A stretch of DNA of 64,000 bases from Candidatus Woesearchaeota archaeon (GTDB lineage Archaea > Nanobdellota > Nanobdellia > Pacearchaeales > UBA284). A program made the position numbers and the translations under genes. Of this stretch, positions 1 through 51,246 are shown piece after piece. The notes beneath the pieces were generated by a model. The model saw only the letters and a list, made by a program, of their open reading frames with translations, had not been told where the DNA came from and searched no databases. Within the stretch, counting starts at the first letter, position 1. Each line of letters opens with the position of its first letter. The stretch covers positions 5,061-69,060 of the forward strand of contig CAYGZP010000002.1 in assembly GCA_964354405.1 (NCBI GenBank). Direction: 5' to 3'.

Positions 1-15
1 TTTTCTCGAACATTT

Positions 16-627
16 TCAGCCACATTTCAAAATTCTTTTAATTAAATTATTGATTTTTTCAAATTGATATTTTCTTTCTACTGCGATAGTATAAATTTTC
101 TCATCTGTTACACTTCCATTTCCTCGGGGCAACCCATCTAACGCAACACAAGTCATGAAATCTGAAATTGTTTCTTGGAAAGCTCGTCTTTTTCTTAATT
201 TTTCTGTTGGTTCAGGAGCTTTATAAAAACTGATATCAAGATAGTTGAGGAAAAATTTGTGAAAGAGTCTTTTTACTCTTGGAATGTGGGTTTCAGAGCT
301 CACCACAGCAAGTTTCTTCCAACCTTGCTCTCTGGCAAGATTTTTTATCTCATAAACATTAGCCTCTGTGTTGTGGGCATATAACGCAAATGGGTGGATT
401 TGTTCAACATCATCTCCATAATTTTTTAATCTGGAATCATCATACAAGTCGCCTTCAAAACCAGGATCATGGGCTTTTTTAGAATTAAATCCGTTTAAAA
501 CAAAATTGTCCGAGAAACCTTGATAATAAAGCTCAAGCGCTTTGTCTAATCTAAGCGCAGTTGTTTCATTATCCGCGCTCAAAACAACAATCGCATCATA
601 TTTATTTGCCATTTTATCCCCGCTCAC
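16..627 (-). CDS. DUF218 / YdcF-SanA-like protein
   Basis: 203-aa ORF. 'DAIVVLSADN' and 'LAVVSSETHIPRVKRLF' resemble the conserved blocks of the DUF218 fold. The GTG start overlaps the upstream stop (GTGA); an alternative ATG lies at 612. Confidence 0.5.
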   Translation of the reverse strand: MSGDKMANKYDAIVVLSADNETTALRLDKALELYYQGFSDNFVLNGFNSKKAHDPGFEGDLYDDSRLKNYGDDVEQIHPFALYAHNTEANVYEIKNLAREQGWKKLAVVSSETHIPRVKRLFHKFFLNYLDISFYKAPEPTEKLRKRRAFQETISDFMTCVALDGLPRGNGSVTDEKIYTIAVERKYQFEKINNLIKRILKCG

Positions 628-1694
628 AAAAGTTCTAATTTATTCAATCCTCTTTCTGTTACTGTGTACTCTTCAATGGGAGTTATCTCTCCATTAGAAT
701 CTTCTATACCATAAATAACCGCTTTCTCGAATTTTTTATCCTTTCCATTCAAATCAATTATTGAAAAAGTGCAAGTCCCTTGCCCCGCTCCAAATTCTCT
801 GCTCAAACTTCCCGGATTAATTAAGACAGTTCTACCGTATTTCTTTACTCCTCTGTTCACAGCACTTGAATGCATGTGCCCGAAAAGCCACAACACCGAG
901 GGTTCTTCTTGTTTCTGTAATTCTGCAAGATAAAGATTAAGAGCATAATTCCCGCCGCGAGACGAGTCATCTCCCTGGACTTTTGCTTGTCCATTCAAGA
1001 TATAATCCAAAACTCTAAGCGGTGGCATATGAGTAATCATGATATCAGAAGGATTATCTCTGAAAAAAGTCAGTGCTTCTGAATTAATTTCAGTTAAATT
1101 TCCTTTGTCATCAAATTTATGAGTCTCATTAAAAGGAACAACAATCTCTTGAGGAATCCATATTGGGCAAACATCTGCGCCACCATATCCCGCGATTGTT
1201 AAATTTGAACTGTTGCATTTGATATCTTTTTTCTGTAAATGCAAGCTATTCTCGAATATCTCCTGCATCAATTCATTGTTGTCATAATTTCCAGGCAATT
1301 TTAATGAAGGCAATTCAAGCTCGTCAAAAACTTCTGCCATTTTTTTGTATTTTTCTGCCATTCCTTCGCGAGCAACATCGGATAAATATAAATATTCAGC
1401 CCCAATTTTTTGTAATCCCTCGCTAAGATTTTGTTCAGAAAGCTCTTTTGCAAAATCAGTTAATTTTCCCTCAAATTTTTTATTTTGAGCCTGTAGATAA
1501 AGTTCATTAAGGTTTTCCATGTATCTTTCAAAAGTTTCTCGTAAAGCCCAAGGAGTATTGATAAAATCTCCGTTAGCAATCCACAAGTCTACTTTCTGTT
1601 CCAAGCCGAACCTTCCAGCTTTTTGCAACATCGCATTATCTTCATGTGAATCGGTGGTGTATAAGATTTTCATTTTTTTATTTCCCCGCTTCAT
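624..1694 (-). CDS. calcineurin-like metallophosphoesterase
   Basis: Motifs 'TTDSHED', 'ANGDF', 'PGNYDN' and 'FGHMH' occur in canonical order. An alternative ATG (MKILYTT) lies at 1673. Confidence 0.7.
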   Translation of the reverse strand: MKRGNKKMKILYTTDSHEDNAMLQKAGRFGLEQKVDLWIANGDFINTPWALRETFERYMENLNELYLQAQNKKFEGKLTDFAKELSEQNLSEGLQKIGAEYLYLSDVAREGMAEKYKKMAEVFDELELPSLKLPGNYDNNELMQEIFENSLHLQKKDIKCNSSNLTIAGYGGADVCPIWIPQEIVVPFNETHKFDDKGNLTEINSEALTFFRDNPSDIMITHMPPLRVLDYILNGQAKVQGDDSSRGGNYALNLYLAELQKQEEPSVLWLFGHMHSSAVNRGVKKYGRTVLINPGSLSREFGAGQGTCTFSIIDLNGKDKKFEKAVIYGIEDSNGEITPIEEYTVTERGLNKLELL

Positions 1695-2004
1695 AATTTC
1701 TGCGTTTTTTTAACAATATTCTTTTAGTTGTCATCACACATTCAACTTTATCTCTTTCATCCGCCAAGACCTCCTCTATTTTCTTTGGATCTTTGGTTTT
1801 TTTAAGCAATTTAAAAGCCCTTTTTATCTGCCCCGCGGCTATAGCATAAGAATAAGCTCTTACAAAATCTCCCTTTGATTCACAAAGTCTGCTTTCGTTA
1901 GAATACACCTGTTTCTTAGCCCATTCATAGAACTTATAAGATTTTACATAATTTCCATTCTTGAATGCATTGTCCGCTTCTTTAACAAGTTCATTTATTC
2001 TCAT
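1678..2004 (-). CDS. hypothetical helical protein
   Basis: 108-aa ORF, co-directional with and overlapping the downstream gene. K/E/Y-rich, helical-repeat-like. No recognisable motif. Confidence 0.3.
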   Translation of the reverse strand: MRINELVKEADNAFKNGNYVKSYKFYEWAKKQVYSNESRLCESKGDFVRAYSYAIAAGQIKRAFKLLKKTKDPKKIEEVLADERDKVECVMTTKRILLKKRRNYEAGK

Positions 2005-2117
2005 TTTATCTCAATTTTGATAAATTACAAAGGCAAAACCCATATTTAAATCTTGCTATTTGTCACTATTTAATAGTAGTATAATAAATATATAAAACGC
2101 CCTGAGTTAAAACAATC

Positions 2118-2888
2118 ATGATTTCATTCGAACCCTTGCACACTTTATTTCAGATAGGAAGCTTCAAAGTTTTCACATGGGGTTTCATGTTTGTGATTGG
2201 TTTTCTCGTTGCTTTATTATTGATCTGGCGCGAAGCAAGGAAACAGAAAATAGAAGATAGACATATCTATAATGTTGCTTTGTTGATATTAATAGGAGCT
2301 ATTATCGGCCCTCGTTTAGTGTTTGTTCTCGAGCATCTCGCTTATTTCGTTGAAAAACCCCTCGAGATACTCATGACGTGGCAGGGAGGCATCACAAGTT
2401 ATGGCGCTTTTCTCGGTGTGTTATTTGTATGGCTCTACGCAAGGAAACAAAAAGGCATAACATTCACACAAATCTTAGATTTAGTTGCTCCTTATCTTCT
2501 GTTAGCAATTGCAATCACAAGAATAGGATGCTTCCTTAACTGGGATGATTTAGGCAGCGCGAGTTCACTGCCGTGGGCAATTCAAGCAGGCAGTGATGTC
2601 GCAAGACATCCGACACAATTATATGAAAGTTTATACTCACTTGTGTCATTTTTCATCCTTCTCGGATTCAAGAAAATAAGAGATAAAGGCCGCGAGACAA
2701 AATTCAAGAAGTTATTGGAAAAACCTGGAGCCTTGTTCCTGTTCTTTTTAATATTTTACAGCTTCTTCCGTTTCTTTAATGACTTTCTTCGGGAGTATGA
2801 AACAAGTTTCCTTGGCTTGGCATTGAGTCAGTGGATTTGTCTTTTCATATTTATTTTTAGTTTTGCAATGTTATCTAGAAAAAGATAA
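2118..2888 (+). CDS. lgt: prolipoprotein diacylglyceryl transferase (Lgt family, divergent)
   Basis: Polytopic membrane ORF with Lgt-type blocks 'GPRLVFV', 'WQGGITSYGAFLG', 'RIGCFLNWDDLG', 'PWAI' and 'RHPTQLYES'. The Asn of the RIGNF block is replaced by Cys. Confidence 0.7.
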   Translation: MISFEPLHTLFQIGSFKVFTWGFMFVIGFLVALLLIWREARKQKIEDRHIYNVALLILIGAIIGPRLVFVLEHLAYFVEKPLEILMTWQGGITSYGAFLGVLFVWLYARKQKGITFTQILDLVAPYLLLAIAITRIGCFLNWDDLGSASSLPWAIQAGSDVARHPTQLYESLYSLVSFFILLGFKKIRDKGRETKFKKLLEKPGALFLFFLIFYSFFRFFNDFLREYETSFLGLALSQWICLFIFIFSFAMLSRKR

Positions 2889-4127
2889 TTACAACAGCTC
2901 GCCCCAGCCAATCAGTCTCCAATGCCCTTGATAGTTTCTCGCTAGGCCAACCCTCTCGCTCTTGAAAGGAACAATGGGGATTTTCAATACAAGTTCAATA
3001 TCATTTCCTTTGATTCTTATAACAGTTCCGACAGTTGTTGCAGTGTTCGCGCTAAGCATAAGATATTCATTAGTTTTCAAAGGCTCAATTTTAATAGCTT
3101 CTTTTTCTTTCGCTCCCACAATTTCCTTGAACAAGTTTACTTTTACAATAATCTTGTAGACAATTTCTGGCAGCGAGCCAGTCAAACCCGCGATACATCC
3201 AGCGAGTGAATCAGCTTTTGTCAAGAATGGGTCGAGAGAAGTTTGGATTGCCAGCGAGCCTGAAGGCAAAGCTTCTTTCAAATCATTATTTCCTGCTCGC
3301 AAGGCAAGAATTTTTGTCTTTACAGTCTTGTAGATTGTCTGATCATGTTTCTTTGAAGACAAGCCAGGCTTGATTTCAATTTCATCTCCAACATGCAAAA
3401 TTCCTTGTTTCAAAGTTCCGCCTAACACTCCTCCTTGGAGCTCTCTAGGCCGAGTTCCCGGGCGATTAATATCAAATGAACGAGCCACTAAGAACAATGG
3501 TTTGGATTTTTCATCTCTTTTGGGCGCAGTCAATTGTGTTATTGCCTCGAGCAGCGCGTCAATATTAATGGCCTGCTGTCCGCAGATAGGAATTATCACT
3601 GCATTTTCCGCGCTCGAGCCCTTGATAAACTCTCTGATTTCTTTGTATTGCTTGAGAGCTTGCTCTTTTGGTATCAAATCTAATTTGTTCTGCACAATAA
3701 TTATTTGTTTGATTCCTTTTGCCTCCAAGGCCAGCAGATGTTCTTTAGTCTGTGGCTGGGGAAAAGGCTCATTAGCTGCAATGACAAGAAGCGCGGCATC
3801 GATTATTGCAGCTCCCCCTAACATCGTCGCCATCAGCATCTCATGCCCGGGAGCATCGACAAAACTTACATATTCTATGTCTTTTGCCTTGCCTCCGCAC
3901 TCACACTCTTTCTTTGCCGTAAACTTTCCACACTTCTCGCATTTCCTGATGATTATGTCAGCATATCCCAACTTGATTGTAATTCCTCTTTTCAATTCTT
4001 CAGAATGCTTGTCAGCCCAAACTCCTGTGATCTGATACATCAGGGTTGTCTTGCCATGATCTATATGCCCAACTATCCCGATGTTCAGCAATGGTTGTTT
4101 AGTAAGAGTAATTTGTTCACTCATCAC
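2889..4127 (-). CDS. eif2g: translation initiation factor aIF2 gamma subunit
   Basis: GTPase motifs 'GHIDHGKTT', 'DAPGH' and 'NKLD', plus the Cys-rich zinc knuckle 'CEKCGKFTAKKECECGG' typical of a/eIF2 gamma. Confidence 0.95.
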   Translation of the reverse strand: MMSEQITLTKQPLLNIGIVGHIDHGKTTLMYQITGVWADKHSEELKRGITIKLGYADIIIRKCEKCGKFTAKKECECGGKAKDIEYVSFVDAPGHEMLMATMLGGAAIIDAALLVIAANEPFPQPQTKEHLLALEAKGIKQIIIVQNKLDLIPKEQALKQYKEIREFIKGSSAENAVIIPICGQQAINIDALLEAITQLTAPKRDEKSKPLFLVARSFDINRPGTRPRELQGGVLGGTLKQGILHVGDEIEIKPGLSSKKHDQTIYKTVKTKILALRAGNNDLKEALPSGSLAIQTSLDPFLTKADSLAGCIAGLTGSLPEIVYKIIVKVNLFKEIVGAKEKEAIKIEPLKTNEYLMLSANTATTVGTVIRIKGNDIELVLKIPIVPFKSERVGLARNYQGHWRLIGWGELL

Positions 4128-4171
4128 AGAACAAGAATAACTTTACTTTTAAATTTTGCTTAATTATATTC

Positions 4172-5045
4172 TTAAAGAATTTCTAACCAAGGGATACAGT
4201 TTTTTTTCAAATCTACAAGCGCATTCTCCCTTATTACTCTTACTCTTTCACGGGTTACTCCTAAAACTTTGCTGATATCTTCAAGACTTTGTATTTCATA
4301 TTCTCCAATACCAAAGTTTCTCATGACCACTTCTCTTTTTTTAATATTAAGTTTAGACAGTGCTAAATTGACTTGTTCGCTCATTTTTTTCGTTTTAAAA
4401 TTTTTTTGAAGGGATGGTCGCAACTCATCAAATGCTCCTAAAATCTGATTAGTATATTGATTCAAATAATCAGGTATTGGCTCTCTACATTGGGTTAAAT
4501 ACTCGTCAGCGTCGGAGTTTGCAGCATTTTCCAAGAATTCTTCGATTTCTTCTAGCGACAATGGTTTTTTTTGATGCTTCTAATGCAAGCCATACGTAAC
4601 AAACATCTTTCTTGATCTCTTGGGCTATTTCTTCAGATGTTGGGGTTCTTCCCAAATCCTTTTGTAATTTAAAAAGTGCTTTTTTTATTTGGTTTGTAAG
4701 GGGTTTGCCTTCCTTCGTATCCGCCCTTTTTATTTCATTCAACATAGCCCATTTAATGCCAATTCCAGCATAAGTACCAAATTTAACTCGTCTTTTCCAA
4801 TCATAAGTTCTGGCAGCCTTGATCAAAGCTTCATTCCCTGCGCTTATAAGGTCTTGATAATAGATATCAGAATTTGGATGATATAGCCTATTCGCATAAT
4901 ACACAACGAGCCTCAAATTAGAAGTTATCAAAGACTCCAAGGCTTTTTCATTTCCCCTTTCAGCTCTTCTTGCCAAGTTGATTTCCTCTCTTCTAGAAAG
5001 TAAGGAATATTGCCTAATTTTTTTAATATAATCGTGAAATTTCAT
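4172..5045 (-). pseudogene. sigma-70 family RNA polymerase sigma factor, split by a 1-nt frameshift in a homopolymer
   Basis: ORF 4506..5045 carries region 2 ('DLISAGNEALIKAARTYDWKRRVKFGTYAGIGIKWAMLNEI') and region 3 ('LGRTPTSEEIAQEI'). ORF 4172..4561 carries region 4.2 ('SLEDISKVLGVTRERVRVIRENALVDLKK'). The frames meet at the T8 run 4565..4572 (A8 on the coding strand). Removing one base gives one continuous ORF of about 290 aa. Confidence 0.8.
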
Positions 5046-5068
5046 TTTTATTTTTTAAATCTTATTGA

Positions 5069-5287
5069 TTAAACTAAAAACTCCTTTACAAAATAATCAG
5101 TTGTTGTAACATATAAATCTCCTTTATATCTCAAAGCGTGAAAATAGTCTCCATTCTCATCTTTTTGGAATTCATTTTCAAAAATAATCTCGCCGCCCCA
5201 TTTAAGAGCCCCACAGAAAGTTTCGAACTCTATAGGAATCGCGCTGTTTTTGATTTCTTTAACTAGTCTCGGGTTTTCTTCTGGCAT
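5069..5287 (-). CDS. hypothetical protein
   Basis: 72-aa ORF, 23 nt upstream of the sigma-like gene on the same strand. No motif recognised. Confidence 0.35.
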   Translation of the reverse strand: MPEENPRLVKEIKNSAIPIEFETFCGALKWGGEIIFENEFQKDENGDYFHALRYKGDLYVTTTDYFVKEFLV

Positions 5288-5292
5288 TTTGT

Positions 5293-5556
5293 TTATTCGC
5301 TTTTTCGTTGAATAAATTTAATAAGAGTTTTCAACTGCTCTTCATTAATTTCTCCCTGATTAGTTTGTCTTACAATCTTCTCCAAATCTTCCTTATGATA
5401 TTTTGAATCTGGAACAATTCCAATTATTGTTCTTTTTTGGGTGTATATATTATCTATACATTTATTAGTTGCTTCAATACCCCCGCAATGGTCTAAAATA
5501 TAACTCTCACTGCCATTACTTGCCTTACTTATAACGGAATACCAAAAGTTTATCAT
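5293..5556 (-). CDS. hypothetical protein
   Basis: 87-aa ORF with a 4-nt overlap with the upstream gene, suggesting an operon. No motif recognised. Confidence 0.35.
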   Translation of the reverse strand: MINFWYSVISKASNGSESYILDHCGGIEATNKCIDNIYTQKRTIIGIVPDSKYHKEDLEKIVRQTNQGEINEEQLKTLIKFIQRKSE

Positions 5557-5963
5557 TTTTTTACTTTTTGTAAATAAGGTTCAAAGAATTTTCTAAAGGA
5601 CTTATAGATACCATTTGCTTTTCTGAAAGTCTCTGCTTTGGCCTTGTCTTTACTGTTCTTCTCGTATTTCGTATCAGTATTACGTTTTAAATTTGTAAAC
5701 CAAAAATTATCCAAATCCCCATTATTTCCATAATCAACAAAAACTCCCAGTTCTTCATCAGCTATACGCATATAAATTGCGTCATTTGCCGAATCTGCGT
5801 TAAAAAAGAGGATGCACTCTTTTGAATCATATACATCTGGTTGGTCTACCCAATATGCCTTTCCTTTTGGGAACTCCATAAGATAAATTTTAGGTTCCAT
5901 TGCGGGTTTCCCTTGCGTAAACAAGCACAATGCCAAACTTGAAACCAAAGTTGCGAGTGACAT
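5553..5963 (-). CDS. hypothetical secreted protein
   Basis: 136-aa ORF with an N-terminal hydrophobic segment 'LATLVSSLALCLF' (signal-peptide-like, LALC). Tightly packed with its neighbours. Confidence 0.4.
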   Translation of the reverse strand: MSLATLVSSLALCLFTQGKPAMEPKIYLMEFPKGKAYWVDQPDVYDSKECILFFNADSANDAIYMRIADEELGVFVDYGNNGDLDNFWFTNLKRNTDTKYEKNSKDKAKAETFRKANGIYKSFRKFFEPYLQKVKK

Positions 5964-5964
5964 T

Positions 5965-6669
5965 TTAGATAAGCTCCCTTGGTTTTAAAGCCTGATAAAA
6001 GAAAGTATTGGCATTAGGTTGGCTATGCCATTCTTTTCCGTCATACATCAAATCAATGCTTCTTGAATTTTTAAAAAGATGAATGACATGACCTTCTTTT
6101 ATTTCTAAGGTTTTGTGATATTTTTCCGGGTTTTCTAGAGAATCATATTTTATTTTTGCATCAAATGCGCGAGTGAGTTTTGGATCAAATATATTAAAGC
6201 CGAGTTTCAGGTTCTGTCGCCAGTAATCTAAAAAACTGTCATTAATGTGACAACCAAAAATATAGATGGGAAAATGACGGGGTTTAGACTGGTTATTATC
6301 AGTTAAGAAAAGCATTGGCCGAATTTTAAATCCTTCTTTAGAAAAGTCTTCTACTATTTCAGGATAAACCTCAAACATTTGGCTTTCTGTCTTATAAAAA
6401 GAAGCAATTAAAATCCCTTCTTTTTCTTCTTTATCCTTTAAACGAATCTTTTGTGGTGTCTGTTTTTTCCCAATATTAGCGTATACCGGAGAAAAACATA
6501 TTTTCTTATTGTGCCAATTCACTTGGAACCAACTTTCATCAAACTGGTTTGCTATGATAATTCTTTTCGTAAAGCCTTCTGTTTCTATTATCTCTCCTGC
6601 ATGAATTGTAAGTCCTTCCCTTAATACTCTTTCTAACTGTTTTTGTATCATAGAATCAAAAAGAACCAA
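5965..6669 (-). CDS. hypothetical protein
   Basis: 234-aa ORF, 1 nt from the downstream gene. No motif recognised. Confidence 0.4.
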   Translation of the reverse strand: MVLFDSMIQKQLERVLREGLTIHAGEIIETEGFTKRIIIANQFDESWFQVNWHNKKICFSPVYANIGKKQTPQKIRLKDKEEKEGILIASFYKTESQMFEVYPEIVEDFSKEGFKIRPMLFLTDNNQSKPRHFPIYIFGCHINDSFLDYWRQNLKLGFNIFDPKLTRAFDAKIKYDSLENPEKYHKTLEIKEGHVIHLFKNSRSIDLMYDGKEWHSQPNANTFFYQALKPRELI

Positions 6670-6713
6670 TTATATTTAAATCTTTCCTTTAAAGTGATAA
6701 CAAAATCTAAGAA

Positions 6714-7043
6714 TTACTTCTTCAATGCCTTTTCAAGAAGCTCTCGAGCTTCCTGCTCTGCTCTGATAAATAAGTTTTCATTGCTGGCATCTCTTGAAAT
6801 ATAGCCTTCTCTCCCTCCCTTAAACTCGTCAAAACTAATTTCGCCTTCCTTATAGTTTTTATCAACCCACCATCCTTTTCCATCCATGTAAATCATATTT
6901 CCTTTTATTTTTTCAAATCTTCGACCTTCAATCTCAATAGGATAATTTATCTTCGGCCTTGCAGAATAAAGGCAGTTCAAGCTCGCCGAAATAAGAAAAA
7001 TTTCCAAGCCTTTCCTTGCCCAATCAGAGATTTTACTCAACAT
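6714..7043 (-). CDS. hypothetical protein (start uncertain)
   Basis: The ORF is open up to 7184, but that version overlaps the upstream gene by 150 nt. The ATG at 7043 (MLSKISDW...) leaves only an 11-nt overlap. Hydrophobic N-terminus 'GLEIFLISASLNC'. Confidence 0.35.
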   Translation of the reverse strand: MLSKISDWARKGLEIFLISASLNCLYSARPKINYPIEIEGRRFEKIKGNMIYMDGKGWWVDKNYKEGEISFDEFKGGREGYISRDASNENLFIRAEQEARELLEKALKK

Positions 7044-7362
7044 ATTGTACTCGCCCGTTTTCTTGCGACCATTTGTACTTTGCAGCCCATTTATCCATAT
7101 ACACTTTGCCTCTTGGATTATCTTTATTAAATCCTTCTCCAGTAGCCTGTACAAAAACGCTCTCAACTGTCCCATCACAATCAAAATCCCAACCTATTCC
7201 AATAATCTGATAGTCCGTGCCTGTTGGAAAAATGTGATGAGCACCAGTTTGCTTGTCCTTGAAAGTTATAAAATCATATTCCGCCTCTTTGCCCTTTTTA
7301 CATCCGCCGATGACTGTTCCAAGAATTAATGCCACTAAACAAACTAAATTTTTAGCTTTCAT
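7033..7362 (-). CDS. putative lipoprotein
   Basis: 109-aa ORF. N-terminus 'MKAKNLVCLVALILGTVIGGCKKG' is a signal peptide ending in a lipobox-like I-G-G-C. Confidence 0.45.
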   Translation of the reverse strand: MKAKNLVCLVALILGTVIGGCKKGKEAEYDFITFKDKQTGAHHIFPTGTDYQIIGIGWDFDCDGTVESVFVQATGEGFNKDNPRGKVYMDKWAAKYKWSQENGRVQYVE

Positions 7363-7415
7363 GACTTAATGAGATAAACGCGGTTTTTAAATATTTATAG
7401 AGAAAAACATATACT

Positions 7416-8357
7416 TTACTCTTCCTTTTCTTTTTTTACTTGCACGAGTATTTCTAAAGGAAAAGCTCTTTTCAACGCGCCAGCAACTCTTGCTCTTACT
7501 TCTATGCTATCTCTTTCGGGAATATTGCGAATAATAAACTCTGGCTCTGTCCGTAATTTATCTGTCCTGATAGATTCCCATCTTGTTAGCTCGAAAGAGT
7601 AAGCATAAAGAGTTATGGGATTCTTTTGCAAACTCTTAACGAGAGGATCATTGTATGGCGCTAAACTTTCTGATGCAATCAATCCATAACAAATATTAAA
7701 AATTCTTCTTATATCCCCGTCTCTTGAGATTCCTGCAAATGATTGTTCGAGAGAGGAATTAAATAAAGCCGCAACAAATTTTTCATCTGTATGCAAATCT
7801 TTATACTCTCGCCTTAAAGGTTTTTTATCATGCTCCCCCGAGCTTGCTCTTGCTTTTTTCAATCCAATCCTATCTGTGATTAATTGAATGCTTTCTGTCA
7901 GAAGCTCATAGCGTTCTTTGTTTAGTGGACAATATATTTTTTCCTTGGCTTTTTTTACTAAATTATAAGAAAGAAGACAAATTTCATTAAAAATATCTTT
8001 ATTAACATTTGGTTTGCCAAGCTCGCGCCCATATTTTACTCTTTTAGGGACATTTGCTTCGAAAGTATTAAGATTTCTGGCTTTTTCACTTATTACCTTA
8101 GAAAAATTAGCAAGCTCGTCAACAGTATCCTCAATTACCATTATGTTAGGCCGGTCTAAGAATTCCAGTGCGTCATTTAAACTGTCTCTTGCTTCGCGTA
8201 ATTGAGCAAATTTTAGCTCCTTATAAATTCGCGCCTTGTAAATATTGTCAGTAAAGTTTTGTTGCTTAAATATGTTAGAAGTATCAGTCAAAAGTCTAGG
8301 CTCTCTTGCCACTATTTCTTTAGGACTCAAATCAATTTCCAATATGTGATTTCCCAT
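7416..8357 (-). CDS. hypothetical protein
   Basis: 313-aa ORF, first gene of the co-directional ORFan run 8357->5069. No motif recognised. Confidence 0.4.
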   Translation of the reverse strand: MGNHILEIDLSPKEIVAREPRLLTDTSNIFKQQNFTDNIYKARIYKELKFAQLREARDSLNDALEFLDRPNIMVIEDTVDELANFSKVISEKARNLNTFEANVPKRVKYGRELGKPNVNKDIFNEICLLSYNLVKKAKEKIYCPLNKERYELLTESIQLITDRIGLKKARASSGEHDKKPLRREYKDLHTDEKFVAALFNSSLEQSFAGISRDGDIRRIFNICYGLIASESLAPYNDPLVKSLQKNPITLYAYSFELTRWESIRTDKLRTEPEFIIRNIPERDSIEVRARVAGALKRAFPLEILVQVKKEKEE

Positions 8358-8419
8358 CTTAGCTCAGATTTAACATTTAATTGAAATATTTAAAGATTTA
8401 TTCAGAAACAAGGGGCTTA

Positions 8420-8899
8420 TTATTTCTTGTCTTCTTCCTTTACTTCTGGCTTGGTTTCTTTAGTCTCTTCTTTCGCCTCGGTTTTTGCCTCGCCTTCTGT
8501 TTTTGTTTCAGCCTTAGCCTCTTTCTTTCCAAAAATCTCTTCAAAACTTTTCGCGCCTTCTTTCGAGACTTTCAAGTTGATTTGAATAATGTCATCGGCG
8601 ATTGTGTTTCCCCTGACAAGTTTTCTCAATCTTAATCCTTGGGGCTTTTTTGTCTTCATTCCTTTTCCTCTAGTCAAAAGCAATCGTTTTCTTCCGACAC
8701 CTTCAACTTGTGAGAGCGCTGGGAATCCCGCCTTGTCGCTCGCCCCTGTGATTACAAACTCGTAGCCCTCTAATTTTGGCTCAAAATCTTTGCCCTCAAC
8801 TTTTTCTCCAAGCTTCTTGCCGACAAAAACATCGCTGCCCGAGTCTAAGTGCACAGTTCTCTTGCTTTTAGGATCTCCAATGTCTAATTTGAATGGCAT
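8420..8899 (-). CDS. rps6e: 30S ribosomal protein S6e
   Basis: 'ITGASDKAGFPA' and 'RKRLLLTRGKG...LRLRKLVRGN' match the S6e family. C-terminal K/E/T-rich low-complexity tail. Confidence 0.85.
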   Translation of the reverse strand: MPFKLDIGDPKSKRTVHLDSGSDVFVGKKLGEKVEGKDFEPKLEGYEFVITGASDKAGFPALSQVEGVGRKRLLLTRGKGMKTKKPQGLRLRKLVRGNTIADDIIQINLKVSKEGAKSFEEIFGKKEAKAETKTEGEAKTEAKEETKETKPEVKEEDKK

Positions 8900-8940
8900 G
8901 ATAATCTCTCGATTTGATTATTTAAAAAACTATCTAAAAA

Positions 8941-10770
8941 TTAAATCCCCCAAGTCGCTTTTGTCTTTCTCTTGATTTCTGCGACTTCCTGCAGAACTTT
9001 TATCTCGCCCGCGCTCAGATATTTTTTATTTTCTTTGAGCCTGAGAAACTCATCTCCTGTCAAATCAGCATAAAGAACATCATCTTCTTGCAATTGCCTT
9101 CCAAAAGTTATGTTTGGCAACGAGATGGCAAGTTCCATGCCTGCTTTTGCTTTTTCAACGCTTTTGCTCTCGCTCTGCATTCCTTTAATCTTAGCAATTT
9201 CCTCGCCTTTTTCATTAATTAACTGCACTCCTGGTTTCAATGAGCCAACTTCAATCTTTACCCCAAATATAGCAGGATGACTTTGCCTGAAGCAGCAATT
9301 TCTCATAACTTTTAATTTGCAAGGCCAAGTTAATCCTTCTAACCTTTGTCTTTCAACTTCTAAGGCTTTTTCAGCCCGCCACTTGACAAGTTGCTCGATA
9401 ATATGATAGATAATGTCACTCTCGATTATTTTTACTCTCTCATCAGCCACTATTCCCTCCTCTCGCGCAACATTAAACCCTACAACAACAGTTTCAAGAG
9501 GATCTGTTTCAGTGTTCGAAGCTGCAAGCGAGATATCTTGTCTTTTTATATTGCCTATCTCAGCTTTTTTCACTCTAACTCCCTCTTTTCTCAACAAGAA
9601 CAACAAAGCTTCCATCGAGCCCAAACTGTCTGCCCTCACAATAATCCCTTCTTTGTCAAGTCTCAACACTTGCTCGACTTCTTTCTGCAAAAGTTCTTTT
9701 AACTTCGCAATTTTTTCAGTTTTAGAATCTTTAACAACAATAAATGGCATGCCCGGCACAAGTTCTTCTGTTATCGGTAAGTATAATTTAATGCCAGTTG
9801 CCGCGCGCACTTCATCAACGGGTTCAAAGCCCTTTCCTAAAGGCAGCGCGCGGAACAATGCGCGAATTTTTGTCTCAACTGCTTTGCCAAGTGTCGCGAT
9901 AACAAGAGTATCTCTTTTAGTGAGAGTGCTGTCATAAAGCACAGCTTCGATTATCACAAATCCTTTTTCCTTTTTTATTTCAAGAATAGTTCCTTTACCT
10001 TCTGTTCCGATGGATAATCTTCCTTTCAAGAATCTCTGAGCTAATCCTGCAAGCATAACAATAAGCTCAGGCAAGCCCTCATGAGTCTTTGCAGAGCAAG
10101 GCACTAACGCGAGTTGTTTAGTAAAGTCGCTGATGCGATAGAACAAGTCAGAATCAAATCCTAAACTTGTAAAACCATTGATAATTCTGTAAAGTTTCTT
10201 GTCAAAATCATCTTTAGTGAACTTTGGTTGTTTCTCGATGCTTTCCATCAAGCTTTCCCCGCGTTTAGTCCATCCAGCGATATTATCAACTTTATTAAGT
10301 GCAACAATAAAAGGAACTTTATTAGCCCTGAGAACTTCAATGCTCTCTCGAGTCTGTTCCATTATTCCCTCGTTAATATCAATCACAAGAATCGCCAAGT
10401 CTGCGAGAGCTCCTCCTCTTTTCCTCAAGTTAGTGAAAGCCGCATGCCCTGGAGTGTCAATGAAAAGAAAACCAGGGATATCAAGTTTAATGTTGAATTT
10501 GTCCAAGAGTTTAGAACATCTGCCCTTAACAATTGCCGATGGAACTAAAGTAAAAGAAATTTTCTGAGTTATCTTGCCAGCTTCCTTTGCCGCAACACAG
10601 GTTCCTCGAATACTGTCGAGCAAAGTAGTCTTGCCGTGGTCGACATGTCCAGCAACTGTAACAATCGGCTGTCTTATATTTGATAGTGCGAGCGGTGCGA
10701 GAGCTGGCGCTGGCTTTTGTATTAATTTTCTTTCCTTGACTTTGACTTTAATCTCTACTCGGGTTGCCAT
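8941..10770 (-). CDS. infB: translation initiation factor aIF5B (IF2-like GTPase)
   Basis: 'VAGHVDHGKTTLLD', 'IDTPGH' and 'NKVD'. The 609-aa length and domain order are typical of aIF5B. Confidence 0.9.
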   Translation of the reverse strand: MATRVEIKVKVKERKLIQKPAPALAPLALSNIRQPIVTVAGHVDHGKTTLLDSIRGTCVAAKEAGKITQKISFTLVPSAIVKGRCSKLLDKFNIKLDIPGFLFIDTPGHAAFTNLRKRGGALADLAILVIDINEGIMEQTRESIEVLRANKVPFIVALNKVDNIAGWTKRGESLMESIEKQPKFTKDDFDKKLYRIINGFTSLGFDSDLFYRISDFTKQLALVPCSAKTHEGLPELIVMLAGLAQRFLKGRLSIGTEGKGTILEIKKEKGFVIIEAVLYDSTLTKRDTLVIATLGKAVETKIRALFRALPLGKGFEPVDEVRAATGIKLYLPITEELVPGMPFIVVKDSKTEKIAKLKELLQKEVEQVLRLDKEGIIVRADSLGSMEALLFLLRKEGVRVKKAEIGNIKRQDISLAASNTETDPLETVVVGFNVAREEGIVADERVKIIESDIIYHIIEQLVKWRAEKALEVERQRLEGLTWPCKLKVMRNCCFRQSHPAIFGVKIEVGSLKPGVQLINEKGEEIAKIKGMQSESKSVEKAKAGMELAISLPNITFGRQLQEDDVLYADLTGDEFLRLKENKKYLSAGEIKVLQEVAEIKRKTKATWGI

Positions 10771-10812: not shown

Positions 10813-11676
10813 TTATGTTTGTTTAGTCAAAATATAGCCCACCAATTTTTCTAATCTTGAATTAGATTGAATTTTTCTTATATTTTCAATAATTCTTTCT
10901 TTTCTTTTAGTGAGATGTTGCTTAACTTTGTCTGCACCAAATATATATACAGAGGTATCAGAATCTATGTGGGTCAATTTTCCTACAACTTCTGGTTTTC
11001 CTTCGAGATCTCTTAAATCATCAAACAACTGATAAGCCACGGATAAATCAACTCCTATTTCATCAAAAATCCCCATTTCTTTTTGAATATCACAGAGGTA
11101 AGCTGGTAATACAGAGGCTAAATAAAAAAATCCATTCTTTTTTTCTATTGATTTCCATAATTCTTTTTTATCTTTATTTTTTCTTAAGTCAAGCTCTTGA
11201 CCAGAAATCACTTTTCTTATTGTACTATCTATTAAAAGTTGTACTGAACTTAATTTATTTAAATTACTAAGATGTTCTTGAGCATTTTTATATAAAAGCT
11301 CTCTTCCAATATCCCAAAGATATATGCTTGCAAGAATTGCTATGTCTTCTCCAAAAGCTTTATGTGCCGTTGGTTTTCCCTTTCTTATAGGAGAATTATC
11401 CATGCAAGGAAGGTCATCTAAAATTAAAGAAGCATGATGAACAGCTTCAATTCCAACAGCGCTTTTTAAAAATTTTGATTGATCTCCCCCCAACATTTGA
11501 TAAATTTCTAATCCTATCAAACTTCTATATCTATGTCCTTCTGGATAAATAGTATAAACTGCCGCTTCACAATGGCAAAATCTTAATTTTGAAGAGAAAG
11601 TTTGTTCTAAGCAACTTTCTATTGCTTTATTAATCAATTCTTTTTGTTGATTTATATAATCCTCTATACCTTCCAT
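10813..11676 (-). CDS. idsA: polyprenyl (geranylgeranyl/farnesyl) diphosphate synthase
   Basis: First Asp-rich motif 'LILDDLPCMDNSPIRKGKPTAH' and second 'YQLFDDLRD'. Confidence 0.8.
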   Translation of the reverse strand: MEGIEDYINQQKELINKAIESCLEQTFSSKLRFCHCEAAVYTIYPEGHRYRSLIGLEIYQMLGGDQSKFLKSAVGIEAVHHASLILDDLPCMDNSPIRKGKPTAHKAFGEDIAILASIYLWDIGRELLYKNAQEHLSNLNKLSSVQLLIDSTIRKVISGQELDLRKNKDKKELWKSIEKKNGFFYLASVLPAYLCDIQKEMGIFDEIGVDLSVAYQLFDDLRDLEGKPEVVGKLTHIDSDTSVYIFGADKVKQHLTKRKERIIENIRKIQSNSRLEKLVGYILTKQT

Positions 11677-12026: not shown

Positions 12027-13121
12027 TTATTTCCTTTGATGGTTTCTGTTGGTGTTATTTCCGTTAAACCTGAAACCCCTTTTCCATTCATCAAAATTTC
12101 TTCCTGGATTTCTCTTGGCGAAATCTATCACAGCGTCTTTATAATGTGTATTATATCCCTTTTCCCACTCTCCAATTCTGCTAAGATATCTTTTGGCTCG
12201 GGGGGTGTAATTGCCATTTTTGTCGTAAACCCCATTAAGGCCACAATTGACGGCAGCAACAGCCGCGTCCCAATTGCCCAACCTGCCATAAAGTTCGAGC
12301 AATCTTTCAGATGTTTTAAACAAAATTTTCTTTTTATTAAAACGGTCATCATATTTGATGAGACTGTCTAGATTATAGCCCTTCTCCTTTTCCAATTTTA
12401 ATAATTCCTCGGCGTGAGATTTGCTTACTAATTTATCACAATTTTGATAAACTTTCATATCCATTTCTTGTGCTACGCTAGGTTGCGTGTGAATTAATCC
12501 CACCCCACCGTCTCCTGTATTTATCTGTAGAGGATCACCAAGGCTTTCTTCCATAATCATATAAAGAAGGGTTCCTTTTGGGGCACCAATTCTATTTTCC
12601 TCTTCTTCAGTGTCCCCTTCCCATCTCGTACTTCTCTGAATTCTGCCCTTAAGGGTATTTTTCTTTGCGAGTTTAACATCATTCAAATCTTTACCTTTAA
12701 CAACTAAAGCTTCTGCCCTTGGTCTTTTAATATCATAAATTATTGTATCTATATTATCTACAATGACTGGTGAGGTTTTGATAAGCCCAAAAGCTAATCC
12801 TGCAGTCAATATCCAATTAAGAATTCCTGCGGGCTTATTTGTCCTTGCCTTTTCCAAACTATGTTTTCTCGTTACTTTGGCAAAATATTTTAGTGGATAT
12901 CGATTTATAACATACCCAAAAGCTCCCCCACCTAATCCAATTAATATTTTTGCGGGGTCACTTAAATCGGATTCAGAGACTTTGAAAGCACCATAAAGAA
13001 GTCCTGCGTTGCCAGCTGCATAAGTTAAAACAGGCAAACCCCACGAATCTATCTTGGGTTTTACATGGTTTATCTTTTTTGTTACTTTTTTTACTACATT
13101 AAATATCTCTTTAATTACCAT
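12027..13121 (-). CDS. membrane-anchored lytic transglycosylase-like protein (SLT/GH23 domain)
   Basis: N-terminal hydrophobic helices. C-terminal 'MIMEESLGDP...GGVGLIHTQPSVAQE' (catalytic E-S and GLMQ-like block) and 'AAVAAVNCGLNGV' (AYNAG-like block). Confidence 0.55.
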   Translation of the reverse strand: MVIKEIFNVVKKVTKKINHVKPKIDSWGLPVLTYAAGNAGLLYGAFKVSESDLSDPAKILIGLGGGAFGYVINRYPLKYFAKVTRKHSLEKARTNKPAGILNWILTAGLAFGLIKTSPVIVDNIDTIIYDIKRPRAEALVVKGKDLNDVKLAKKNTLKGRIQRSTRWEGDTEEEENRIGAPKGTLLYMIMEESLGDPLQINTGDGGVGLIHTQPSVAQEMDMKVYQNCDKLVSKSHAEELLKLEKEKGYNLDSLIKYDDRFNKKKILFKTSERLLELYGRLGNWDAAVAAVNCGLNGVYDKNGNYTPRAKRYLSRIGEWEKGYNTHYKDAVIDFAKRNPGRNFDEWKRGFRFNGNNTNRNHQRK

Positions 13122-21188: not shown

Positions 21189-21306
21189 TCTTTTTTATCT
21201 CTATAAGTAAGAAAATTGTCATATAAAAAACTTGCTTTGTTTGCTTGTTTTGTTTGTCTTTCTTTACTTGCGTTAAATTTTTAATATACCCTTGCTATAT
21301 ATTATC

Positions 21307-21993
21307 ATGAAAAAAGGGGCGAGAGATAACAACAGAGACAGCAAAGATAATCATGATGGGAATCAGACAAAAGAGAAGAGGTTCGAAACATTATATCAGT
21401 TGTCAAAAGAAATCAAGACAGAGATGAAAAAACCCAAGCCAGAGGGCGCTGTTCTCGAGAGACTTTTCGATGAGCTTTACTTGTTTGCAACCAGAGATCA
21501 TCTGACAGGCGCATTCAACAGAAGAGTTCTAGATGAATTATTAGGACATGAAATGGAAAGGGCAATAAGACAGGGACTTCCTCTCAGTGTAATTATGTTT
21601 GATGTAGACAATTTCAAAGGCTATAATGATAAGTTTGGACATCTTCAAGGAGACATGGCACTCAAGACAGTTACAAATGTAGTTCAAAAACTCACAAGAA
21701 AAGAGGATTTTGTAGCGAGATATGGCGGCGAGGAGTTTCTCATTGTCTTGCCTGACACTGTAATCGAGAAAGCCAGAGAAATCGCCGAGCGCATAAGAAA
21801 AAAGATTTCAGAAGCAAGAATTCCTGCTGCCGGCAAGGAAGTCAAGGATGGTTTTGGAAAAATAACAGTTAGCATAGGAGTTTCTCAATTCGCAAAGAAA
21901 AAAGGCATTCATCACATGTTGCATCTCGCAGACATGGCATTGTACAGGGCAAAAGCTCTTGGAAAGAACAGAGTTTGCATAATGTTGGAATAA
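21307..21993 (+). CDS. GGDEF-domain diguanylate cyclase (stand-alone)
   Basis: 'DHLTGAFNRR', 'MFDVDNFKGYNDKFGHLQGD', 'RKEDFVARYGGEEFLIVLPDT' (an RxxD I-site five residues before GGEEF), 'SIGVS' and 'ADMALYRAKALGKNRV'. Confidence 0.85.
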   Translation: MKKGARDNNRDSKDNHDGNQTKEKRFETLYQLSKEIKTEMKKPKPEGAVLERLFDELYLFATRDHLTGAFNRRVLDELLGHEMERAIRQGLPLSVIMFDVDNFKGYNDKFGHLQGDMALKTVTNVVQKLTRKEDFVARYGGEEFLIVLPDTVIEKAREIAERIRKKISEARIPAAGKEVKDGFGKITVSIGVSQFAKKKGIHHMLHLADMALYRAKALGKNRVCIMLE

Positions 21994-39040: not shown

Positions 39041-39838
39041 ATGCCAAAAGCCAAAGACGCACAACTTATCTTGATCCTGAAAGAGCTTGTCAGGAAAATC
39101 GCAGGCAAGACATCTGAAACAATAGTCGACGTTTTGTTTGACAAAACAAATGTCAACGAGTTCAAGATTGCTGACAAGCTTAAAATAACCATCAACCAAA
39201 CTCGAAATATCTTGTACAGAATCTCTAGTTATGGGATTCTTGATTCAACTCGCAAGAAAGACAAGAGAAAAGGATGGTATACTTATTTCTGGACTCTTAA
39301 CATTGTCAAAGCACTCGAGGCTTTCATAAAAATCAAGGCAAAAGAAATCGAGTTGTTGGAGCAGATTCTCAAGAGCCATCAAAACAAGCAGTTCTATATC
39401 TGCACTCAAGACAATATTGAGATGACTGAAGAAACTGCCATGACTCATGGTTACTTGTGCCCTGAGTGCGGCTTGTTATTACAGCCTATAGCAAAAGACA
39501 AGAAAATCAAGGAGATTACAACAAAGATAGACTCGGCAAAGCGCGAGTTAGATTTAGTCAAGGTAGAACTAGACTTGAGAAAACCAAAGCCAATAATCAA
39601 ATTGCCCAAAGTAAAGAAAGTCAAGAAAGCAAAAAAAGTGAAGAAGAAAGCGAAGAAAAAAGCCAAAAAGAAAACAAAAAAATCCAAACTTAAGAAGAAG
39701 GTCAAGAAAAAGAAAAAAGCTAAAGGAAAGAAAAAGGGCAAGGCAAAGAAGCCAAAAGCAAAGAAAAAGTTCAAGGCTAAGAAGAAAGCTAAGAAAAAAG
39801 CAAAGAGCAAGAAAAAGAAGGGAAAGAAGAAAAGATAA
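39041..39838 (+). CDS. tfe: transcription factor E (TFE alpha/TFIIE-alpha-like) with poly-lysine C-terminal tail
   Basis: N-terminal winged helix 'NEFKIADKLKITINQTRNILYRISSYGILDS...WYTYFW', a degenerate zinc ribbon ending 'YLCPECGLLL', then a 76-residue Lys-rich tail. Confidence 0.65.
   Translation: MPKAKDAQLILILKELVRKIAGKTSETIVDVLFDKTNVNEFKIADKLKITINQTRNILYRISSYGILDSTRKKDKRKGWYTYFWTLNIVKALEAFIKIKAKEIELLEQILKSHQNKQFYICTQDNIEMTEETAMTHGYLCPECGLLLQPIAKDKKIKEITTKIDSAKRELDLVKVELDLRKPKPIIKLPKVKKVKKAKKVKKKAKKKAKKKTKKSKLKKKVKKKKKAKGKKKGKAKKPKAKKKFKAKKKAKKKAKSKKKKGKKKR
39608..39835 (+). repeat. purine-rich low-complexity coding repeat (AAG/AAA/GCn) encoding (K/A/V)-rich tail
   Basis: By my count, 53 of the 76 codons are Lys. 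Irregular KKAKKK-type reiteration, with no spacer/repeat periodicity. Confidence 0.8.
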
Positions 39839-41411: not shown

Positions 41412-41846
41412 ATGAAGATTCTTTATTATATGCGAGAAGAAAAAAGCCGAATACATGAACATTCTCACCGAGCAGAAATATTCTATATTCCAAGAAAAGG
41501 GTCAATTTTATTTATAGATAATTGCGGGGGAGCTACCCAATTTTATGCAGATTCAGATAAAAATTGTTTATTCGATGAAGTCCATAAAATATTAAAAAAT
41601 TATGAAAAAATAAAGGATAAGTCTAAAAAAAGCAGAGATTCGTATGGGGTATATAGTGGGGAGATAAATATATCCCAAAATGTAATAATCTCAAATATAA
41701 GGATGTTTAGATATGGCCCTAAATCAATAGGGAAATTAATTAAAAATATAAAAACAAAAACTACATTAGAAGGACAAATTAATAAAGAGTTAAGGTCTAT
41801 TGCTCAATTCGGCTTAAATCTTGAACTTCTCCGGGGGGATAATTAA
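41412..41846 (+). CDS. hypothetical protein
   Basis: 144-aa ORF that stops 1 nt before the tbp ATG. Confidence 0.35.
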   Translation: MKILYYMREEKSRIHEHSHRAEIFYIPRKGSILFIDNCGGATQFYADSDKNCLFDEVHKILKNYEKIKDKSKKSRDSYGVYSGEINISQNVIISNIRMFRYGPKSIGKLIKNIKTKTTLEGQINKELRSIAQFGLNLELLRGDN

Positions 41847-41847
41847 A

Positions 41848-42390
41848 ATGCGCAAGACAAATCTTAAAATTCAGAATATTGTCGCGACAACTTCTCTCAA
41901 TACTAAAGTTCCTCTAGTCAAACTAGTAAGAAGCCAAAGCAACACAGAATATAACCCAGAACAGTTTCCAGGTCTAGTGTTAAGGATAAAGAAACCAAAA
42001 TCAGCTGTTTTAGTTTTCTCATCAGGAAATCTTGTTTGTACAGGGACTAAGAGCATAAAACAAGTCAATGAAGTCATAGTTCAAGTTATCAGACAGCTCA
42101 AAAAAATAGGGGTTCATGTCAAAGAAAAGCCCAAGATAAATGTCCAGAACATTGTAGCGAGCGGCTCGATAAACATAAAAATGAACTTGAATGAGCTCGC
42201 GCTAAAGTTAGAAAACACAGAATACGAGCCAGAGCAGTTTCCAGGATTGGTTTACAAGCTCAACGAGCCAAATGCAACATTCTTGTTATTCAGCAACGGC
42301 AAGTTAGTATGCACAGGAACAAAGAACAAAAAACAGCTTGAAGAAGCCATGAAGCAGCTGTTGAAAAACACAAAAGCCGCGATGAAGTAA
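41848..42390 (+). CDS. tbp: TATA-box binding protein
   Basis: Two direct repeats: 'IQNIVATTSL...EQFPGLVLRI...SGNLVCTGTKS' and 'VQNIVASGSI...EQFPGLVYKL...NGKLVCTGTKN'. Confidence 0.95.
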   Translation: MRKTNLKIQNIVATTSLNTKVPLVKLVRSQSNTEYNPEQFPGLVLRIKKPKSAVLVFSSGNLVCTGTKSIKQVNEVIVQVIRQLKKIGVHVKEKPKINVQNIVASGSINIKMNLNELALKLENTEYEPEQFPGLVYKLNEPNATFLLFSNGKLVCTGTKNKKQLEEAMKQLLKNTKAAMK

Positions 42391-48883: not shown

Positions 48884-48885
48884 AA

Positions 48886-50545: not shown

Positions 50546-50602
50546 TCACTTTTTCTTTTCTCTCATATGCCCTGGTAGCTCAGTGGTAGAGCACGCGGCT
50601 GT

Positions 50603-51108: not shown

Positions 51109-51246
51109 TAACCGCGGGGTCGCAAGTTCGAACCTTGCCCGGGGCGTTTTTATCTTCCCCCTTCCTTCTTTTTATATTATATTGATTGTATTTTTTCACA
51201 TAAATGTTTTTATATCTTCAAATCTTGATGTTGAAGGCTAAAGAAA

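Follow-up and report, generated by a model that had tools for sequence, protein, structure and literature searches.

The sigma-70 genes known from DPANN archaea are an unexplained oddity, a bacterial initiation factor being encoded where there is no bacterial polymerase for it to bind. Such genes (fam00359) were reported by Castelle et al. 2021 (Front Microbiol, PMC8204110), especially in Woesearchaeota, with mis-binning excluded, no anti-sigma factors found and the mechanism of action left open. The gene considered here is a sigma-70-like gene that is split over two reading frames at a run of eight adenines (A8), and lies in a 64,000-nucleotide (nt) stretch of the contig CAYGZP010000002.1 of a Pacearchaeote, a small archaeon of the symbiotic (DPANN) type; the whole of this stretch is referred to as the window. 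It shares with the fam00359 genes an archaeal contig with archaeal genes on its flanks, the presence of TBP and TFE genes, and the lack of an anti-sigma partner. It differs from them, for which Woesearchaeota were stressed, in that it is Pacearchaeota-like and belongs to a clade of three lineages with conserved synteny with aIF2-gamma, in the loss of a Trp pair and in the frameshift. A preliminary description of the window had noted that a sigma factor has no obvious partner in an archaeon. The view that such a gene would be unprecedented there is outdated, since sigma-70 genes were reported in DPANN in 2021, and the missing partners were noted in that report too.

Two other sets of described systems are relevant for comparison. 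The bacterial group 1/2 sigma factors (SigA/RpoD and RpoS) have in common with the protein under study the 1.2-2-3-4 order of the domains, the fold and the region 4.2 motif TRER.R.I, and RpoS and RpoD are its best NCBIfam models. Unlike them, it scores far below the equivalog cut-offs, has Ser-Ala in place of Gln-Glu, has replaced Trp-Trp, lacks the ‘RIPVH’ segment and is found in an archaeal host. With respect to the interruption, the closest cases are the slippage-restorable open reading frames (ORFs) of Baranov et al. 2005 (PMC1088944), in which, as here, there is a single-base frameshift in an A run and slippage at the mRNA level would restore the ORF. The present case differs from them in that the run is of 8 nt rather than of at least 9 nt, the shift is not conserved, the organism is archaeal, and the interruption is known here from DNA alone.

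The reading preferred here, to which a probability of approximately 0.6 is assigned, is that a real and recent +1A slip in a Pacearchaeote has most likely inactivated a sigma-like gene that is of bacterial derivation and dispensable. The gene would be a lineage-specific sigma-70 gene of bacterial derivation and group 1/2-like architecture (sigma 1.2, 2, 3 and 4; approximately 290 aa), belonging to a small clade that appears to be confined, so far, to Pacearchaeota-like DPANN and to lie always directly upstream of aIF2-gamma. An ancestral A7 tract coding for Lys-Lys at the boundary between regions 3.1 and 3.2 would have gained one A by replication slippage. Normal decoding would then yield no more than sigma 1.2-sigma 3.1, truncated and followed by a 19-residue nonsense tail, and the sigma 4 DNA-binding domain would not be made, save for rare slippage of RNA polymerase, or +1 slippage of the ribosome, on the A-run. 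Most likely, the allele would be an OFF variant, in which the function of an accessory gene has recently been lost; in close relatives this gene is intact or missing. The frameshift itself is an ordinary slipped-strand mutation; that it inactivates the gene is inferred. What is new is modest, namely a tiny Pacearchaeota clade with fixed synteny, the loss of residues for promoter melting and core binding, a presence/absence polymorphism and a natural frameshifted allele.

Structure of the split gene and family membership

The first of the two frames (ORF1) encodes native sigma sequence over residues 1-160, followed by a 19-residue out-of-frame tail (TIVARRNRRILGKCCKLRR) and a stop. The second (ORF2), as reported by gene callers, encodes 129 aa from a TTG start, and the two overlap in different frames around the A8 run (coordinates are collected in table 1). 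Relative to the sigma regions, the frame is lost where region 3.1 gives way to region 3.2 (the ...AQEPVSLET... segment of SigA), so that ORF1 lacks the linker and the sigma 4 domain. Deletion of one A from the run, or addition of two, gives back the exact ancestral Ser-Lys-Lys-Pro-Leu-Ser reading. The repaired protein obtained by deleting one A consists of 290 aa (...LALEASKKPLSLEEIEEFLEN..., the junction stretch being also given as ...LALEASKKPLSLEEIEE...), with the junction peptide ...EASKKPLSLEEIEEFLENAANSDADEYLTQCR, where the frameshifted tail reads TIVAR... instead. The preliminary description had placed the sigma-70 regions in two frames meeting at this run, had expected a continuous protein of about 290 residues on removal of one A, and had located the gene 44 nt upstream of aIF2-gamma on the same strand; in coordinates and content these statements were accurate. 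With seven runs of at least seven A in 874 nt, compared with 0.82 per kb elsewhere, the gene is unusually rich in such runs, and 65 runs of exactly seven A or T are present in the window. Its GC content (34.6%, versus 37.4% for the window) and composition are not outlying.

Comparison of the two products with Pfam models yielded 34.4 bits for Sigma70_r1_2, 39.4 bits for r2 and 30.7 bits for r3 with ORF1, and 36.9 bits for Sigma70_r4 with ORF2. Overall, the sigma 2 domain (PF04542) scores 37.7-39.4 bits with a cut-off of 24, and the sigma 4 domain (PF04545) 34.1-36.9 bits with a cut-off of 24.1; the extras found in group 1/2-type factors, region 1.2 (PF00140, 32.7 bits versus 22) and region 3 (PF04539, 39 versus 25.3), are also present. 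In the repaired protein all four domains are above the gathering thresholds, which bears out the initial assignment of the sigma-70 regions. The repaired protein also matches the NCBIfam model of the sigma-70 superfamily (TIGR02937, 72.3 bits with a cut-off of 42.9). It misses every equivalog and subfamily cut-off of the named sigma subfamilies in NCBIfam (RpoD, RpoS, RpoH, FliA and those of sporulation), the best equivalog being RpoS (123.7 bits versus a cut-off of 378.7), with FliA/WhiG at 87.2 versus 189.6. By sequence, the nearest PDB matches are SigA (E = 2e-26) and RpoS. The AlphaFold model of the repaired protein has a mean predicted local distance difference test (pLDDT) value of 73.7, with sigma 2, 3 and 4 confidently modelled and only the 170-217 linker at low confidence, and its top Foldseek matches are all SigA/RpoS. 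The sigma-70 family identity of the gene is far beyond chance. The sole PADLOC match for the sigma protein was the generic sigma domain of MzaA.

In an exhaustive HMMER search that covered 1.84 billion representative proteins, only the three-member clade scored high (473 and 308 bits), the following matches being at 209 bits or less. No more family members were found among JGI metagenome contigs and IMG/VR viral contigs, and GTDB genomes contained no further member but only an unrelated Clostridia sigma. Outside the clade, the closest proteins are two sigma-like ones (P0083 and P0249, at loci L008 and L009) with 32-36% identity. They share with the clade AGNE in region 2.2, the MRNFGLGEYE motif and the region 3.0 deletion, and differ from it in an approximately 90-residue N-terminal extension, in having kept Trp-Trp and in adjoining restriction-modification genes. 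Both contigs look bacterial (with IspH/LytB on L009). Beyond these, the matches are generic RpoD/SigA proteins of Gemmatimonadota and Bacteroidota with approximately 30% identity.

The arrangement at these two bacterial-looking loci is an observation in its own right. In both (L008, 10001-13940; L009, 7713-11571) the sigma-like gene is immediately upstream of a gene for a 917-aa type I restriction HsdR protein, and in L009 HsdR is followed by HsdS, HsdM and a Schlafen/AlbA-like gene. P0083 and P0249 may represent a sigma-like part, so far undescribed, of a restriction or defence module.

Ancestral state, selection and authenticity of the additional adenine

An intact orthologue of 290 aa with 71% identity (P0001) is found on two contigs (L001 and L002), on which the gene order around it is that of the window, namely S6e, small orphan genes, sigma and aIF2-gamma. 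A distant homologue with 41% identity (P0003, locus L015) also has aIF2-gamma directly downstream. The uninterrupted frame, which is absent in the window copy, is present in both P0001 and P0003. At the site of the interruption L001 and L002 read TCAAAAAAACCA, that is, TCA-AAA-AAA-CCA with A7 in frame coding for Lys-Lys-Pro, and L015 reads GCAAAAAAACCA, that is, GCA-AAA-AAA-CCA, again with A7 in frame. As both homologues have A7 in frame at the same codons, the tract was ancestrally A7 and coded for Lys-Lys, and the window allele arose from it by a +1 insertion.

The ratio of non-synonymous to synonymous substitution rates (dN/dS) between the window copy and P0001 is 0.26 overall, with values of 0.27 upstream of the shift (N-half) and 0.25 downstream of it (C-half); for the flanking housekeeping genes it is 0.05-0.10. 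Before the lesion, purifying selection of moderate strength acted on the gene in archaea. Relative-rate tests with P0003 as the outgroup gave, for the window branch versus P0001, 8 versus 8 in the N-half and 11 versus 9 in the C-half, with no acceleration on the window branch, which argues for a recent lesion. No further stops or indels were found in the gene. Thus, of the marks of a recent pseudogene, the disruption of a frame that is intact in the orthologues is present, and relaxed constraint and secondary lesions are not; the lesion would be very recent or partly compensated and, if the gene is a pseudogene, it would be a very young one.

Three close relatives, with aIF2-gamma 84-86% identical, lack the sigma gene, and in them a homologue of the orphan gene h72 abuts aIF2-gamma at a distance of 35-44 nt, with no sigma remnant detectable by tblastn. 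Because close relatives do without it, sigma is an accessory, dispensable gene. The initial proposal of a decaying horizontal acquisition is only half borne out: the gene is no fresh import, as it belongs to a small, highly diverged clade that is found upstream of aIF2-gamma in three Pacearchaeota lineages and was under purifying selection, and the lesion itself is recent, with no decay beyond it.

As for the additional A, the 179-aa and 129-aa products were found to be exactly encoded on four further contigs, one for each of four separately assembled runs (ERR3804373, ERR3804374, ERR4334731 and ERR4334732) from at least two accession series. In these four assemblies the 874-nt gene is 100% identical to that of the window, A8 included, and there is no break at the site; with 0 differences over up to 9.4 kb, they represent the same strain as the window. 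Neither the A7 nor the A10 repaired protein was found by exact look-up among approximately 15 billion catalogued proteins, and a DNA pattern scan of metagenome contigs for A7-A9 alleles returned none. When the whole window was scanned at homopolymers for indels that would fuse ORFs, no other genuine split gene was found; the candidates were ordinary gene junctions, such as that at a G6 run at 41833 between a 144-aa ORF and the complete TBP gene. The 46 kb of other coding sequence contain 38 runs of at least seven A, all of them in frame, including one A8 run in another gene. A systematic homopolymer error would have split further genes as well, and the additional A is thus very probably genuine.

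Alternative explanations

Several considerations weigh against inactivation by a recent slip. The full lack of downstream decay also fits a gene that is still expressed. Furthermore, a +1 ribosomal shift on the run would move the P-site Lys tRNA from one AAA triplet to another with perfect pairing, while in the 0 frame the A site holds ACC, a rare codon that accounts here for 10% of those for Thr; some rescue is therefore mechanically plausible. Finally, four assemblies of the same strain replicate the sequencing and not the biology and, A8 being known from assemblies alone, a minority subpopulation may have A7, or the homopolymer count may carry a platform-specific bias.

Functional rescue of the gene would take place by slippage of RNA polymerase on the T8 template, which would convert A8 into A7 or A10 in the mRNA, or by a +1 ribosomal shift on A-AAA-AAA-ACC, giving a low, possibly regulated dose of the full-length protein next to the truncated sigma 2-sigma 3 form. 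Besides the favourable tRNA pairing and the rare codon, such rescue is in keeping with the return of S-K-K-P-L-S on deletion of one A or addition of two, with the lack of secondary downstream lesions and of any rate acceleration, and with the bacterial precedent of disrupted ORFs restored by slippage on A/T runs (PMC1088944). However, the frameshift is not conserved, all three homologous intact loci (L001, L002 and L015) having A7 in frame. The A8 run is also shorter than the length of approximately 9 nt from which, in most bacterial genomes, selection against slippage is evident (PMC1088944), and A8 is tolerated in frame both at a second position of the sigma gene (L-K-K-N) and in the orthologue, which indicates that slippage at A8 is infrequent. 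RNA folding downstream of the site is no better than that of shuffled controls (z = +1.81 and +0.91), and in a review of archaeal recoding (PMC8211752) transcriptional slippage appears in the reference list only. The slippery site is thus neither conserved nor of at least 9 nt, and lacks a stimulatory RNA structure, which leaves a designed recoding signal without support; adventitious rescue at a low level is possible. By taking all this into account, functional rescue is regarded as unlikely, and of the slippage rescue proposed in the preliminary description what stands is a possible low-level effect, without positive support.

A sequencing or assembly error at the homopolymer of an intact A7 gene, the first option that had been put forward for this gene, is quite improbable. 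Single-base miscounts of homopolymers are the commonest cause of apparent frameshifts, and the richness of the sigma gene in A runs would favour them. Against such an error, A8 is found in the window record as well as in the four runs assembled separately, the exact repaired protein is nowhere recorded, and 0 of the 38 other coding-strand runs of at least seven A break an ORF, the second A8 of the sigma gene itself being also in frame; no other gene of the window is broken at a homopolymer.

It is also very doubtful that the tract is a phase-variable (contingency) switch, in which alternation between A7 and A8 by slipped-strand mispairing would turn a sigma-like regulator ON and OFF. The tract lies inside the ORF, both A7 (ON) and A8 (OFF) are seen among lineages, and the gene is within a block that differs in content between close relatives. 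However, no length polymorphism is observed within strains, A8 being present in five out of five assemblies of the window strain and A7 in both of those of the L001/L002 strain. Moreover, A7 tracts are common in this AT-rich genome, the present one is plain Lys-Lys in AAA codons and does not call for a particular explanation, and A tracts of 7-8 nt switch far more slowly than classical contingency loci. Lastly, a split sigma factor, in which both ORFs are translated and the sigma 2-sigma 3 and sigma 4 polypeptides cooperate like two-subunit sigma factors, is hardly credible: gene callers report both ORFs, and a free sigma 4 domain could be translated from an internal ATG (KKMSEQ...) that lies beyond the stop of ORF1, but no Shine-Dalgarno-like sequence precedes the TTG start, no homologue is split, and the junction cuts the conserved KKPLS motif at the region 3.1/3.2 boundary rather than a domain linker.

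Residues lost and kept in the intact protein

In Escherichia coli sigma-70, two residue pairs, Trp-Trp in region 2.3 and Gln-Glu in region 2.2, have a central part in the melting of promoters and in the contact with the beta-prime clamp helices. In region 2.2 the window protein reads DLISAGN where SigA and the bacterial proteins read DLIQEGN, with Gln-Glu changed to Ser-Ala. In region 2.3 the YATWWIRQA sequence of SigA corresponds to YAGIGIKWA in the window, YAGNGIKWA in P0001 and YAFPYIRNK in P0003, so that Trp-Trp is replaced in the clade by Ile-Gly, Asn-Gly or Pro-Tyr. The ‘RIPVH’ segment of region 3.0 is deleted. The helix-turn-helix of region 4.2 (TRERVRVIRENAL) is conserved (TRERVR.IR..AL). 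A canonical promoter-melting sigma factor would have the Trp-Trp and Gln-Glu pairs, and neither is present. A scan with Pfam of about 50 ORFs of the 64-kb window revealed no RNA polymerase subunit and no anti-sigma factor. The loss of the Trp pair and Gln-Glu, in a host with no known bacterial core enzyme, suggests that the intact protein may act in the archaeon as a DNA-binding regulator of the sigma 4 helix-turn-helix type, and not as a canonical promoter-melting sigma.

A more elaborate proposal is that Pacearchaeota have domesticated a sigma-70 derivative as a DNA-binding regulator, without the promoter-melting residues but with the sigma 4 helix-turn-helix and a fixed place upstream of aIF2-gamma, for which the Lys-Lys A-tract would serve as an expression valve, with A7/A8 slippage at the level of DNA, RNA or ribosome switching or tuning the balance between the full-length and the truncated sigma 2-sigma 3 forms. 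The chances of this being so are considered slim. If it were true, archaea would thereby have their first sigma-like regulator under the control of slippage.

Genomic context

The archaeal nature of the window is evident from its gene content, which includes MCM with an archaeal winged helix, thermosome, an archaeal CCA-adding enzyme, RPA, aIF2-beta, aIF1A, diphthamide synthase and Trm5/Tyw2, with aIF5B, S6e and aIF2-gamma close to the sigma gene. TBP and TFE are both encoded within the window, as had been stated at the outset (table 1). The best named relatives of the window aIF2-gamma, with 66-84% identity, are from Candidatus Pacearchaeota. An assembly join next to the gene, which the preliminary description had seen as a way in which its interpretation might fail, was not found: one independent contig (L003) spans positions 1-9415 of the window unbroken and with 100% identity, and the adjacency of sigma and aIF2-gamma recurs in L001, L002 and L015. 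With archaeal genes on both flanks, these data exclude mis-binning or a chimeric assembly.

Table 1. Positions of the features discussed in the text, numbered from the first nucleotide of the window.
Feature	Position	Strand	Remarks
ORF1 of the split sigma gene	4506..5045	-	179 aa; regions 1.2, 2 (2.1-2.4) and 3 (3.0/3.1), from Pfam and alignment to SigA
A8 homopolymer on the coding strand (T8 on +)	4565..4572	-	frameshift site
+1-frame continuation	4172..4564	-	region 3.2 linker and region 4 (4.1/4.2 helix-turn-helix)
ORF2 as reported by gene callers	4172-4561	-	129 aa, TTG start
Second A8 run in the sigma gene	4200..4207	-	in frame (L-K-K-N)
aIF2-gamma (GTP_EFTU, eIF2_C)	2889..4127	-	downstream neighbour of sigma in all three sigma-bearing lineages
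TATA-box-like TTTAAAAG	4146..4153	-	approximately 22-26 nt upstream of the aIF2-gamma start
Degenerate copies of TTTAAAAGTAAAG	5046-5062, 4141-4153		flanking sigma
Co-directional orphan genes upstream of sigma	5069..6669	-	tightly packed; h234 5965-6669, h136 5553-5963, h87 5293-5556, h72 5069-5287
Variable S6e-aIF2-gamma block	4172-8357		orphan islet
LGT	2118-2888	+	prolipoprotein diacylglyceryl transferase
Small protein	7033-7362	-	lipobox-like N-terminus MKAKNLVCLVALILGTVIGGC
SLT domain protein	12027-13121	-	lytic transglycosylase domain
GGDEF domain protein	21292-21993	+	diguanylate cyclase domain, 151 bits
TFE-alpha	39041-39838		
TBP	41821-42390		complete gene
Helix-turn-helix protein	48874-49947	+	357 aa; HTH_50, HTH_23, HTH_38, HTH_Tnp_1
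Split tRNA gene	50569-51148	+	insertion of approximately 506 nt in the anticodon loop
HNH-endonuclease-like ORF	50617-50958		within the tRNA insertion
Group I intron core (RF00028)	50894-51102		full length, 79.3 bits

The TATA-box-like element upstream of aIF2-gamma is found with the same motif and spacing in L001, L011, L013, L014 and L015, that is, in relatives with and without sigma. Its conservation irrespective of the sigma gene implies that aIF2-gamma probably has its own promoter and would not feel the frameshift. In L001 the sigma gene lies between two copies of a TATA-like 13-mer (TTTAAAAGTAAAG, at about 9986-10000 and 10893-10910), and degenerate copies take the corresponding positions in the window. 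Only 5-6 nt separate the upstream copy from the sigma ATG, which is too short a distance for it to be the promoter of sigma. From this arrangement, sigma may have been inserted, or may be excisable, between promoter-box repeats, which would be the footprint of an insertion into the promoter region of aIF2-gamma.

The orphan genes upstream of sigma are probably co-transcribed with it. No convincing Pfam, PHROG or PADLOC family was found for the seven upstream orphan genes and, with no such matches, a provirus or a defence island is not supported. Among the loci examined, h234 was found only in sigma-bearing ones; a PDB sequence search with it returned nothing, and its structure prediction (pLDDT 32) yielded an unusable model. 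In comparison with L001, L011, L013 and L014, the block between S6e and aIF2-gamma appears as a variable islet of orphan genes, the aIF2-gamma identity among these relatives being 84-88%. Within the region the lowest synonymous divergence (dS) is that of h234 (0.41) and sigma (0.72), the values for the flanking core genes being 0.91-1.55, and this segment may have been exchanged more recently. On the other side of aIF2-gamma, L001 (12160-15106) and L002 (6206-9152) carry bacterial-type DnaB and DnaA (Bac_DnaA) genes between aIF2-gamma and LGT, another bacterial-type insertion next to the same locus; the window is without it, and LGT abuts aIF2-gamma.

Other features of the window

Genes of bacterial type are present elsewhere in the window. 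Cell-envelope genes encode the prolipoprotein diacylglyceryl transferase (LGT), a small protein with a lipobox-like N-terminus and a protein with an SLT lytic transglycosylase domain, and a further gene encodes a protein with a GGDEF diguanylate cyclase domain, a bacterial-type second-messenger enzyme.

A tRNA gene that was missed by ARAGORN in the raw window is split in the anticodon loop by an insertion containing an HNH-endonuclease-like ORF and a full-length Rfam group I intron core. When the two parts were joined in silico, ARAGORN recognized a 74-nt tRNA, which would be tRNA-Asn(GUU) if spliced after U 50602 and G 51108, as from group I rules, and tRNA-Tyr(GUA) if cut at position 37/38; near 50921 the hexamer GCAGCT is a candidate for the internal guide sequence. 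In the survey of Nawrocki et al. 2018 (PMC6125680) 39 out of 39 archaeal group I introns were in rRNA genes and, given these rRNA-only cases, a group I intron in an archaeal tRNA gene may merit its own study. A few hundred bases upstream of this gene lies that of a 357-aa protein with two transposase-type helix-turn-helix domains, which may be a mobile-element relic or a regulator.

Concluding remarks

The present analysis shows one sigma-70 clade that has been maintained in archaea by purifying selection and at a fixed position. That the clade has lost the core-binding and melting residues, yet has kept the helix-turn-helix, suggests that its role is not that of a classical sigma factor. With the A7 and A8 tracts providing natural ON and OFF alleles, respectively, their comparison could reveal the role of the gene.

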